From positions 1 through 64,000 of IMG/VR virus record IMGVR_UViG_3300045988_024527: DNA of 64,000 nt; one strand, given 5' to 3'. The notes under the pieces are model-generated. The model made no database searches and was not told the origin of the DNA. It saw nothing but the letters and a program-made list of their open reading frames with translations. The position numbers were made by a program, and so were the translations under genes. Positions 31,795-33,460 of this stretch are shown piece after piece. The DNA is from a virus (lineage: Duplodnaviria; Heunggongvirae; Uroviricota; Caudoviricetes). Every line of letters starts with the position of its first letter. The stretch's first letter is position 1.

Positions 31795-32057
31795 ATTTTT
31801 TATAAGGCTACTGCCATCCTTCCATACCAAGCCCTGCCGAACCGAACCATGCTTTGCCATACCGGACAATACCTGACTAGACATCACTTAAAAATCCTCT
31901 TAGAAGACTCTTAAGTGATGTAATCGAATTTTTATGTAGTTTCGATTAACTACCCATACCAAGCCTAACCTGACCGCACCAAACTTTACAACACCACACC
32001 ATACCTGACCATAACAAACCTCATTAAAAGACCCTGTTTAAAGACCTTTTAAAAAGG
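31795..32057 (-). repeat. modular intergenic repeat block A (CA-rich segments plus hairpins H1, H3, H2)
   Basis: Shares H1 (31882-31920), H3 (31922-31953) and H2 (32021-32057) with block B at 33221-33460, modules in different order. Confidence 0.6.
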
Positions 32058-32073
32058 AGCCTCCGAAGAGGCT
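32046..32073 (-). terminator. rho-independent terminator (- strand)
   Basis: Stem agcctc/gaggct with loop cgaa; on the - strand followed by ccttttt. Confidence 0.5.
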
Positions 32074-32084
32074 ACCTAGTCAAC

Positions 32085-32525
32085 TTAGAAAGGTTTTCTA
32101 CGTTGCTTGTTAATGTTAGCTTTCATAGCAGCTAAATGGTTTTGCTGTTCAATCAGTCGTGAACGTTCTTGATGACTAAGTGCCATAGTGTTCACATTCT
32201 CAATTGCTTGAGTGGCTTGTTTTAAAGCACGACCAATCTTACCAGACATTTTACGTTTTGCAATAGTTGCTTGATGTTTAGGTTCAACCACACGATAACC
32301 AACACCCATTGAAGCAACCAGATAAATCTTCTCTTCTTTAAGAAGTTTCTCAATAAACTTCTCAAGTCGGTTTAGACGTGTAAGTGCATAAGCCTTCATT
32401 TCATCTTCGTACTTAACAATGTCACCTTGATAAGTTGGCTTCACAATACCTAAGAAGGTGTCCATCTCAGAATGTGATACAGTGTCACCGTAACTAAACT
32501 TTGCTGCTAATGCTTTTGTATTCAT
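32085..32525 (-). CDS. hypothetical protein (146 aa), repeat-flanked cassette gene 2
   Basis: ORF track; basic C-terminus; no recognised motif. Confidence 0.5.
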   Translation of the reverse strand: MNTKALAAKFSYGDTVSHSEMDTFLGIVKPTYQGDIVKYEDEMKAYALTRLNRLEKFIEKLLKEEKIYLVASMGVGYRVVEPKHQATIAKRKMSGKIGRALKQATQAIENVNTMALSHQERSRLIEQQNHLAAMKANINKQRRKPF

Positions 32526-32527
32526 AA

Positions 32528-33130
32528 TTAAACATTACCTTCTGAAATAACTTCTACAGAAAAACGACCAAAGCGTGGACGCCAATCACCTACACCACAA
32601 AGGTTACCAGCATTTTCCAGAACCATCAGGAGTTCCTCTTTGGTGATTTGCTCTTCATCGAACATCAAACCGAACTCTACAGACCAGTCGCGGAAGATTG
32701 GACGGTAGCTCATAACTCGTGCTGTACCAATCTTAACAGACTTAGCATAGATAAAGTCTGGATTCTTAGCAAGTTCTTGTGGGTTTGCTGGACAGTTCTT
32801 GATAGTCATTGGGAAGACTACATCTGTCAGCATAATGGCTCGGTCAATCACCTTACCAAGTTTGTTGAGTTTCGCACCAGACTTGATGCAAGCCTCAATC
32901 ATCTCACCGTTCATAACAAAACCTAGCTGCTCATCGTAGTAACAAGAAGTTACCAGTTGGCTTTCTGCTAAGAGCGCATAGTCTTCGTCGGTCTTTTTAC
33001 GTTTACTGGACAGAGACTTGTGATATTTTGTCAGAGGGTTTAATGGGTCTGACAGTGTATCAGCGTGGCTCAGGAAAGGACGAGTACCAGTGATTTTGAT
33101 ATTTAACAGTTTCATAGCATTTAGCTCCAC
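32528..33130 (-). CDS. hypothetical protein (200 aa), repeat-flanked cassette gene 1
   Basis: ORF track; no recognised motif. Confidence 0.5.
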
Positions 33131-33220
33131 ACTTTAGTTGATTGTTAAGTTGTTTGTAAAGAACCCTCAACAGAAGACTCTTTAGAAACTTGGTAGATTT
33201 TTAATGTGGCTACTACCATC

Positions 33221-33460
33221 CACCCATACCAGACCTAACTACACCTCACCCCACCTGACCCATACCTCGCATTACCATACCAAACCAGACCCCACCTCAT
33301 TAAAAGACCCTCTTAAAGACCTTTTAAAAAGGTAAGTCTCATTTTAATGTAGCTGAGACTAACTACCCACACCAAACCATAGCATACATCGCATTACCGG
33401 ACAGAACCATACTTTACCAGACATCACTTAAAAACCCTCTTAGAAGACTCTTAAGTGATG
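33221..33460 (-). repeat. modular intergenic repeat block B (CA-rich segments plus hairpins H2, H3, H1)
   Basis: H2 33298-33332, H3 33335-33366, H1 33422-33460; a further hairpin ggtgagta/tactcacc at 33463-33504. Confidence 0.6.

Follow-up and report, generated by a model that had tools for sequence, protein, structure and literature searches.

RNA-guided recognition of DNA has recently been reported for a phage-against-phage system termed VIPR (Viral Interference Programmable Repeat), which is proposed to be older than CRISPR (bioRxiv 10.64898/2026.04.26.720920, 10.64898/2026.04.26.720927). The system comprises a minimal RAMP protein, Vipr, an accessory vap and guide RNAs of ~100 nt, the vrRNAs, which consist of 9–16 YNNGG repeats followed by an invariable 3′ tail of ~40 nt (bioRxiv 10.64898/2026.04.26.720920, 10.64898/2026.04.26.720927). 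There is one Vipr protomer per repeat, with GGY hidden and NN presented; the NN dinucleotides read double-stranded DNA with every third base skipped, and competing mobile elements are silenced (bioRxiv 10.64898/2026.04.26.720920, 10.64898/2026.04.26.720927). The vrRNAs of Escherichia phage SUSP1 were detected as ~100-nt RNAs by small-RNA sequencing and co-purify with Vipr, and the natural targets of the SUSP1 clade lie on a satellite phage (bioRxiv 10.64898/2026.04.26.720920, 10.64898/2026.04.26.720927). For the tail of this clade, a pseudoknot with compensatory changes was predicted (fig. S9 there), and in the cryo-EM density of SUSP1 vrRNA1 the 3′ pseudoknot caps the RNA; in the preprints it is called a cap and serves as a fiducial, with no mechanism assigned to it (bioRxiv 10.64898/2026.04.26.720920, 10.64898/2026.04.26.720927).

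Here, we analyzed a stretch of 64,000 nucleotides of phage DNA (the window), in which a preliminary description made from the sequence alone had singled out a hairpin, H3, with compensatory base changes between its two copies. We find that H3 is very probably the longer helix (7–8 bp) of the 3′-terminal H-type pseudoknot in two of the four VIPR guide RNAs on the minus strand. The tail pseudoknot as an element is already in the literature with the two preprints of 2026, and our results add nothing new to its published description.

A complete VIPR locus in a Felix O1-like phage

The window derives from a Felix O1-like phage; megablast retrieved 231 phage records, nearly all of which are Ounavirinae of Escherichia, Salmonella, and Shigella. 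All genes around H3 are on the minus strand. The two H3 copies are located in long intergenic regions (31698–32084 and 33131–33525) on either side of a two-gene cassette (32528–33130 and 32085–32525), which lies downstream of the DNA ligase gene (33526–34662). Public records of relatives label these intergenic regions as promoter, terminator, ‘repeat_region’ or small hypothetical ORF, or leave them unannotated; they can now be labelled.

The first gene of the cassette is vipr (32528..33115, minus strand). The mechanically called ORF of 200 aa begins at a GTG at 33130, while the true start is the ATG at 33115, which gives a protein of 195 aa. One solved structure matches this protein, PDB entry 36pp, ‘SUSP1 Vipr protein’, at E = 1e-128; of 195 aligned residues, 193 are identical, and tblastn against SUSP1 gives 98.5% identity. 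Of the nine residues that contact RNA according to the preprint, eight are found at the same numbering (H17, E71, M72, R138, C173, D177, W178, and R179), and at the ninth position the residue in the window is the same as in the deposited SUSP1 sequence. A Pfam search with the 200-aa ORF gave no match, and its PHROG assignment is unknown function. The second gene, vap1 (32085..32525, minus strand; 146 aa, phrog_5926), is the accessory gene and is 99.3% identical to the SUSP1 ORF at the same position. At the distant locus L022, a phrog_5926 vap homologue is likewise found beside vipr, and in distant phages with a Vipr of 37–40% identity GG-periodic arrays adjoin vipr as well.

Each intergenic region is made up of two homologous units of ~135 nt, which are paralogous and shuffled between both regions. 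Read on the plus strand, a unit consists of a 33-nt stem-loop module, ~55–71 nt of degenerate NNACC pentamers and a long hairpin. Read on the minus strand, the long hairpin is followed by 11–14 GGY-NN pentamer repeats and a 33-nt tail, and the last two correspond to a vrRNA of ~90–105 nt. The window holds four of these on the minus strand, two upstream and two downstream of vipr, with predicted lengths of 88, 104, 98, and 93 nt for B2, B1, A2, and A1, respectively. vrRNA B2 (33334..33421) contains 11 pentamer units (33367–33421), in five of which the first G is missing, and ends in the tail pseudoknot at 33334–33366, which is H3 copy B. vrRNA B1 (33191..33294) has 14 units plus one extra base (33224–33294), seen as a 1-nt phase break of the array, and a tail pseudoknot at 33191–33223 that reads GTGGA/TGGTAGTA/GCCAC/AUUAAAA/AUCUACCA; its stem class is that of SUSP1 vrRNA1, whose loop is GUUAAAA. 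Downstream of the cassette, vrRNA A2 (31921..32018) comprises 13 units (31954–32018) and the tail at 31921–31953, which is H3 copy A (GUAGU/UAAUCGAA/ACUAC/AUAAAAA/UUCGAUUA), and vrRNA A1 (31789..31881) comprises 12 units (31822–31881) and the tail at 31789–31821 (AAGGA/UGGCAGUA/GCCUU/AUAAAAA/AUCUGCCA).

A 5-base-periodic CC, which reads as GG in the minus-strand RNA, is confined to four places in the 64 kb, all within the two intergenic regions, and no 5-base-periodic GG was found on the plus strand of the window. We additionally compared 94 distinct arrays from related loci. In units 4–13 from the 5′ end, G2 is conserved to 94–99% and Y3 to 98–100%, while the entropy of N4 and N5 is 1.6–2.0 bits in all units but the last one beside the tail. 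This pattern of conserved GGY and hypervariable NN independently reproduces the central observation of the preprint. Because Vipr, vap1, GGY-NN arrays, the GGY/NN conservation pattern, and the pseudoknot tail are all found here, we assign the locus to type II VIPR (SUSP1 clade). This Felix O1-like phage thus carries all parts of a VIPR locus, namely vipr, vap1, and four guide RNAs, and all four vrRNAs are presumably expressed and functional.

Signals that might delimit transcripts were found at three minus-strand positions. Immediately past the stop codon of the ligase gene, a sigma-70-like site, TTGACA-16-TATACT (33491..33518), agrees with the consensus at 11 of 12 positions, which is a consensus match only; it overlaps an inverted repeat (33462–33503) and is a candidate promoter from whose position transcription would cover the upstream vrRNAs, vipr, and vap1. 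After vap1, the terminator scan identified a terminator-like hairpin, AGCCUCUUCGGAGGCU, followed by CCUUUUU (32058..32073), the U-tract of which overlaps the 5′ arm of one of the long hairpins (hairpin Y, see below). After the last vrRNA, the inverted-repeat scan yielded an AT-rich hairpin (31742..31789), which encloses a promoter-like site, TTGACA-17-TATTTT, of the next gene; related records carry an annotated promoter at the equivalent place.

Fold, covariation, and strand of the vrRNA tail

Direct reading of the sequence confirmed H3 copy A at 31922–31953 (aatcgaa-tttttatgtagt-ttcgatt-aactac) and copy B at 33335–33366 (agtctca-ttttaatgtagc-tgagact-aactac). Three of the seven stem base pairs differ between the copies (aAtcGAa versus aGtcTCa), and all three changes are matched on the 3′ arm, as originally reported. 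Loop and tail had both been called conserved; this applies to the aactac tail, which is identical, but not wholly to the 12-nt loop, in which two of the 12 bases differ. A stem-free pattern, TTTWATGTAGY-N7-AACTAC with up to two mismatches, has two matches in the 64 kb, both of them H3, with 0.14 expected. The possibility that two unrelated sequences pair by chance is contradicted by their setting, since both copies are part of homologous ~135-nt units, the mean column identity of which is 72%.

Two modules had been described, and the covariance model introduced below shows that there are in fact four such tails in the window. The two further paralogous modules, TGGCAG/CTGCCA at 31789–31821 and TGGTAG/CTACCA at 33191–33223, align column for column with H3. 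We interpret the module as an H-type pseudoknot because in all four the supposed loop bases (gtagt, gtagc, aagg, and gtgg) can pair with those that directly follow the stem (actac, actac, cctt, and ccac, respectively). The earlier proposal of an RNA hairpin therefore stands with respect to RNA, but not with respect to a free-standing hairpin, since the loop gtagt/c pairs with aactac. On the minus strand, the tail has a stem 1 of 4–5 bp, a loop 1 of 0–1 nt, a stem 2 of 6–8 bp, and an A-rich loop 3 of 7 nt. The order in the H3 tails is GUAGU (pairing with RCUAC), a junction of 0–1 nt, the AAUCGAA or AGUCUCA arm, the AUWAAAA loop, and the 3′ arm of stem 2. Covariation among the four window paralogues is seen in both helices, in the short one for example with AAGG/CCTT and GTGG/CCAC.

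The covariance model was built from the four window modules and included the long helix only. It identified 135 modules (38 distinct) across 37 Ounavirinae-derived loci: four, and no more, in the window and 131 in relatives. No spurious match occurred in the 64 kb of the window, nor in the single complete genome without vipr that was scanned. The model can hence serve as a clean vrRNA finder for annotation. No match was obtained at the distant VIPR loci L020–L025; the tails of those loci therefore differ. When both helices were scored on the alignment of the 135 tails, 87.9% of the cells pair, compared to 28–43% with the partners slid by 1–3 columns; the independent compensatory events behind these values are few, as the tails fall into only four stem classes with some point variants, and the shuffle control makes significance and independence look greater than they are. 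Double changes occur in 10 of the 13 pairs. The short helix, which is absent from the model, is paired in 91.6% of its cells, and four of its five pairs are doubly changed. In the 7-bp stem of the 25 distinct H3-type tails, 169 cells are Watson-Crick pairs, 6 are G.U pairs and none is a mismatch, so that the pairing is broken in not one of these 175 stem cells. Covariation across the intergenic regions of relatives, proposed as a check in the preliminary description, is thus found for both helices when pairs are scored on the alignment from the covariance model. In the tails of relatives the stems change and the pairing is kept, which bears out the view that structure rather than primary sequence is under selection at H3.

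The changes that affect one side of a stem only reveal the strand. Across the 38 distinct tails, 25 cells are G.U pairs on the minus strand, compared to 2 A.C cells, which would be G.U pairs on the plus strand; this asymmetry indicates that the RNA is on the minus strand. Of the two kinds of structure considered in the preliminary description, the RNA one thus applies, but this RNA is the reverse complement of the strand on which H3 had been drawn. An illustrative series is seen in the copy-A stem, where AAUCGGA/UCCGAUU, AAUCGGA/UUCGAUU, and AAUCGAA/UUCGAUU carry G-C, G.U, and A-U, respectively; the A-U variant is found in this window alone among the sampled loci. Also on the minus strand are vipr itself, the GGY repeats of the arrays and the promoter-like site. 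The minus-strand reading is also stereochemically ordinary, while the plus strand would need a 1-nt loop across the minor groove of a 7-bp helix.

We weighed three other explanations of H3. According to the first, it is a free-standing regulatory hairpin of an mRNA leader or trailer (a terminator, attenuator, or stabiliser) that has nothing to do with the pentamers. The site would suit such an element, being intergenic and near promoter-like and terminator-like sequences, and RNAfold gives each helix alone as a simple hairpin. However, neither strand has a U-tract after the stem, and 32058–32073 is the only site listed by the terminator scan; the flanking gtagt and aactac form a helix of their own, which co-varies in the paralogues; and every one of the 135 copies is placed directly 3′ of a GGY-NN array. 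We therefore regard a free-standing hairpin as very improbable. According to the second, the inverted repeat functions as DNA, either as a cruciform or as a site bound by a dimeric protein, such as might belong to an origin of replication or a site of recombination. An inverted repeat does exist in the DNA, and the region is situated among replication genes such as the ligase gene. This explanation, which had also been put forward in the preliminary description, does not agree with the strand asymmetry of the one-sided changes described above, which are G.U in the minus-strand reading and A.C in the plus-strand one; a site in duplex DNA should show no such difference between strands and should not allow A.C on one of them. 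Moreover, a protein site would be expected to keep its sequence, whereas the arms differ at three of seven positions and still pair, and the second helix overlaps the loop, which is meaningless in a cruciform. We consider a role as a DNA palindrome extremely improbable. According to the third, a small mobile or duplicated element left copies that are now decaying, with arms that are complementary by descent and not through selection. In its favor, the paralogy of the units is clear, they have been shuffled between the two regions, and about half of the related phages have no vipr-vap1 cassette. Decay would break stems, however, and instead pairing, GGY, and the A-rich loop are kept while NN has near-maximal entropy. 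We give this explanation next to no credence.

We thus favor the reading of H3 as part of the vrRNA tail pseudoknot. Located at the 3′ end of the Vipr-vrRNA filament, the pseudoknot would act as a cap. On this reading, its fold alone matters: the stems can drift, provided that both arms change in step or by way of G.U, and the compensatory pattern of H3 arises because selection acts on the fold and not on the sequence. The cap might serve to define the end of the filament, to set the register, or to protect against exonucleases. The H3-class tails probably fold like the solved tail of SUSP1 vrRNA1. The tail classes (H3 versus TGGYAG type) are position-specific and might carry information beyond that of any stable pseudoknot.

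Several other candidate features of the intergenic regions were rejected. The H3 stems do not qualify as intrinsic terminators, as the minus-strand sequence after them is ACAUCAC or ACCUUUU and the plus-strand sequence is aactaccc. A small plus-strand ORF at 33204–33335 has a frame that is not conserved between the units, and sigma-70 promoters within the long hairpins lack a consistent −35/−10 pair across copies. We also set aside three further ideas, namely that Rho might use the C/A-rich plus strand as its utilisation site, that the G/U-rich minus strand might be a sponge for a TRAP-like or CsrA-like protein, and that there might be a replication origin with iterons.

Inter-vrRNA hairpins and vrRNAs without vipr

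A long hairpin, X or Y, precedes every vrRNA, and a fifth copy lies before vipr; as minus-strand RNA, these hairpins have 17–21 bp. Hairpin X 5′ of vrRNA B2 (33422..33460) has ~19–21 bp including G.U pairs (−21.6 kcal/mol, z = −5.3), and hairpin X 5′ of vrRNA A1 (31881..31921) is an uninterrupted 19-bp helix with three G.U pairs (−23.3 kcal/mol, z = −7.6). The Y hairpins 5′ of vrRNA B1 (33295..33332) and of vrRNA A2 (32019..32057) were identified by inverted repeat, folding, and covariance model, and the fifth copy, between vrRNA B1 and vipr (33152..33189), scores 42.6 bits. All five are on the minus strand, and the X/Y model scores ~20–30 bits lower on the other strand. No other strong match to the model was found in the window, where one match of 25.9 bits is located in the tRNA cluster. 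In 91 distinct copies, 95.3% of the cells pair and 7 of the 17 pairs are doubly changed; the co-varying pairs are the outer ones, and the G.U pairs are nearly invariant. In the preprint text we found nothing on the biogenesis of type II vrRNAs, and we did not find the X/Y hairpins in the texts of the two preprints. These hairpins could be processing signals, for example for host RNase III, at which the arrays are cut into guides of ~100 nt.

At least 80% of the queried cassette region is covered by 113 of the 231 related records, so that approximately half of them are without most of it, and the two that we inspected lack vipr but retain vrRNA units, one or two in number and intact. In Salmonella phage BPS15S6, tblastn across the whole genome found neither vipr nor vap1, and the intergenic region next to the ligase gene still carries two complete vrRNA units. 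A second phage, SP3_SHan-2021, lacks both genes at the locus and has kept one vrRNA unit there. The vipr-less junctions look as if the left end of the upstream region had been fused to the right end of the downstream region, which would fit a deletion via recombination between the repeated units. vrRNAs in vipr-less relatives were not found in the texts of the two preprints. Such vrRNAs could rely on Vipr from a relative that infects the same cell, or they could serve as decoys.

Only two parts of this work, the X/Y hairpins and the vrRNAs that persist without vipr, may add to the published description. We put forward tentatively, and consider rather unlikely, that the hairpins are processing signals, that vipr-less vrRNAs borrow Vipr or act as decoys, and, as a separate point, that the tail classes are informative.

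Guide targets and comparison with known systems

Under the NNx rule, in which one base is skipped after each NN, no natural target was found for any of the four guides in the databases covered here, where matches were about as frequent as chance predicts. The last eight NNx units of A1 and A2 matched environmental contigs only in IMG/VR, with at most 21 of 24 NN bases. Nine A1 units had 20 matches in the GTDB genomes, about the number estimated from the database size, and none of them in Enterobacteriaceae. Exact NNx sub-patterns occurred in IMG/VR and the GTDB genomes about as often as expected by chance; none of these matches is in Enterobacteriaceae or extends to a full guide. A BLAST search for satellites with the 283 nt at 31780–32062, which contain A1, A2, and X/Y hairpins, found no match in 5,426 complete E. 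coli genomes. Within the 64-kb window, the guides have no self-targets. This agrees with the result of the preprint for the P. fulva clade, types III and V, where vrRNAs were compared to their own source contigs and no self-targeting was seen (bioRxiv 10.64898/2026.04.26.720920, 10.64898/2026.04.26.720927).

With respect to other structured RNAs, Rfam at the gathering threshold reports only tRNAs in the window, and at E ≤ 1 three chance-level matches and no relevant family, preQ1 and other pseudoknot riboswitches included. By its topology, with a short stem 1, a very short loop 1, and a stem 2 of 6–8 bp, the tail presumably resembles classical H-type pseudoknots such as the preQ1-I riboswitch and the phage T4 gene 32 leader. 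The A-rich loop 3 would be a further common feature, positioned so as to occupy the minor groove of stem 1. Those pseudoknots differ from the vrRNA tail in genomic context and partner protein, and not even at E ≤ 1 does Rfam connect them.

A functional parallel is provided by the repeat-derived handles of CRISPR crRNAs, such as the 3′ hairpin of types I-E and I-F. In both cases, a constant structured cap is joined to a variable guide within a RAMP-fold filament, and stem sequences co-vary between systems. In contrast to these handles, the vrRNA tail is a pseudoknot rather than a simple hairpin, and the guide is non-contiguous. In addition, a Cas6-type endonuclease is absent from the VIPR locus, and the units are separated by long hairpins containing G.U pairs, not by the repeat itself.

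The closest relative is the type II VIPR system of SUSP1. Both share nearly identical Vipr and vap1 proteins (98.5% and 99.3%), GGY-NN arrays that flank vipr on the coding strand, and the position and length of the tail. They differ in the host genome, which is that of a Felixounavirus here and of a Suspvirus in the case of SUSP1, and in the NN guide sequences. According to the tail model, SUSP1 has one vrRNA upstream and three downstream of vipr instead of two and two, and this is the layout of the four vrRNAs seen by small-RNA sequencing. SUSP1 vrRNA1 has 12 clean repeats, which matches the stated cryo-EM sample; the pseudoknot seen by cryo-EM is of the SUSP1 vrRNA1 tail class, with stems as in B1 of the window, and not of the H3 class. 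The stem of H3 copy B (TAGTCTCA...TGAGACTY) is nonetheless present in SUSP1, in two of its three downstream vrRNAs, at positions 1026–1066 and 1169–1209 of its locus (L136).

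Hairpins preceding the vrRNAs and vipr

On the minus strand of the window, we found five copies of a hairpin family with stems of 17-21 bp, located at 31881-31921, 32019-32057, 33152-33189, 33295-33332, and 33422-33460. One hairpin precedes each of the four vrRNAs, the guide RNAs of the VIPR system, and one precedes vipr. The G.U pairs are almost invariant in this family, while the outer pairs co-vary. In the rest of the window, the family model gave no match apart from a weak one at chance level in the tRNA gene cluster. This cluster comprises 16 genes (698-4058, plus strand). 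It is possible that the hairpins represent processing signals, with RNase III as a conceivable enzyme. We found no mention of them in those parts of the VIPR preprint texts (10.64898/2026.04.26.720920 and 10.64898/2026.04.26.720927) that were available.

Additionally, a promoter-like site precedes the first vrRNA, and its -10 element is located inside a perfect 9 bp inverted repeat (TGGTGAGTA...TACTCACCA, window 33462-33503). The sequence GCTGGTGA at 33460-33467 differs from the E. coli Chi sequence by one base.

Irregular arrays and overlapping ORFs

The pentamer arrays (GGY followed by two variable bases) are not entirely regular. In vrRNA B1 (33224-33294, minus strand), a single additional base separates the seventh and eighth units (TATGG-G-TCAGG) and breaks the 5-nt phase. 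In vrRNA B2 (33367-33421, minus strand), the first G is missing in 5 of the 11 units; this position is also the least conserved within GGY across relatives (0.7-0.9). Short ORFs overlie vrRNA arrays at 33204-33335 of the window (plus strand) as well as in the phage records L144 (2290-2839) and L145 (2481-2630). In some public records, such ORFs are annotated as hypothetical proteins, and they are probably spurious calls.

Elsewhere in the window (24540-24834 and 27174-27441, plus strand), there are a direct repeat of 197 nt with 80% identity and internal repeats of ~27 nt, which are GGTGCTCAC/CACAC-rich. Since large plus-strand ORFs occupy this region, both kinds of repeat resemble modules embedded in coding sequence.

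vrRNAs without vipr and distant Vipr loci

Two Felixounaviruses, Salmonella phage BPS15S6 (MG646670.1; L139 1139-1306, corresponding to L322 32520-32687) and MW296865.1 (L140 1139-1179), lack vipr and its partner gene vap1 at the cassette locus, to which the absence refers in MW296865.1; for BPS15S6, tblastn of the whole genome revealed no match to either gene. One or two vrRNA units, comprising array, pseudoknot, and flanking hairpins, are still intact in these phages. The cassette region was covered to at least 80% in only 113 of 231 related records.

In the environmental phage contigs L022, L021, L024, and L025, Vipr is just 37-40% identical. GG-periodic repeats of several hundred bases, in which the SUSP1-type tail is absent, adjoin vipr in all four contigs. 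In L022, these repeats (3080-3590) separate the vipr homologue from the vap homologue, and the motif AAGGTCAGAGGT recurs within them.
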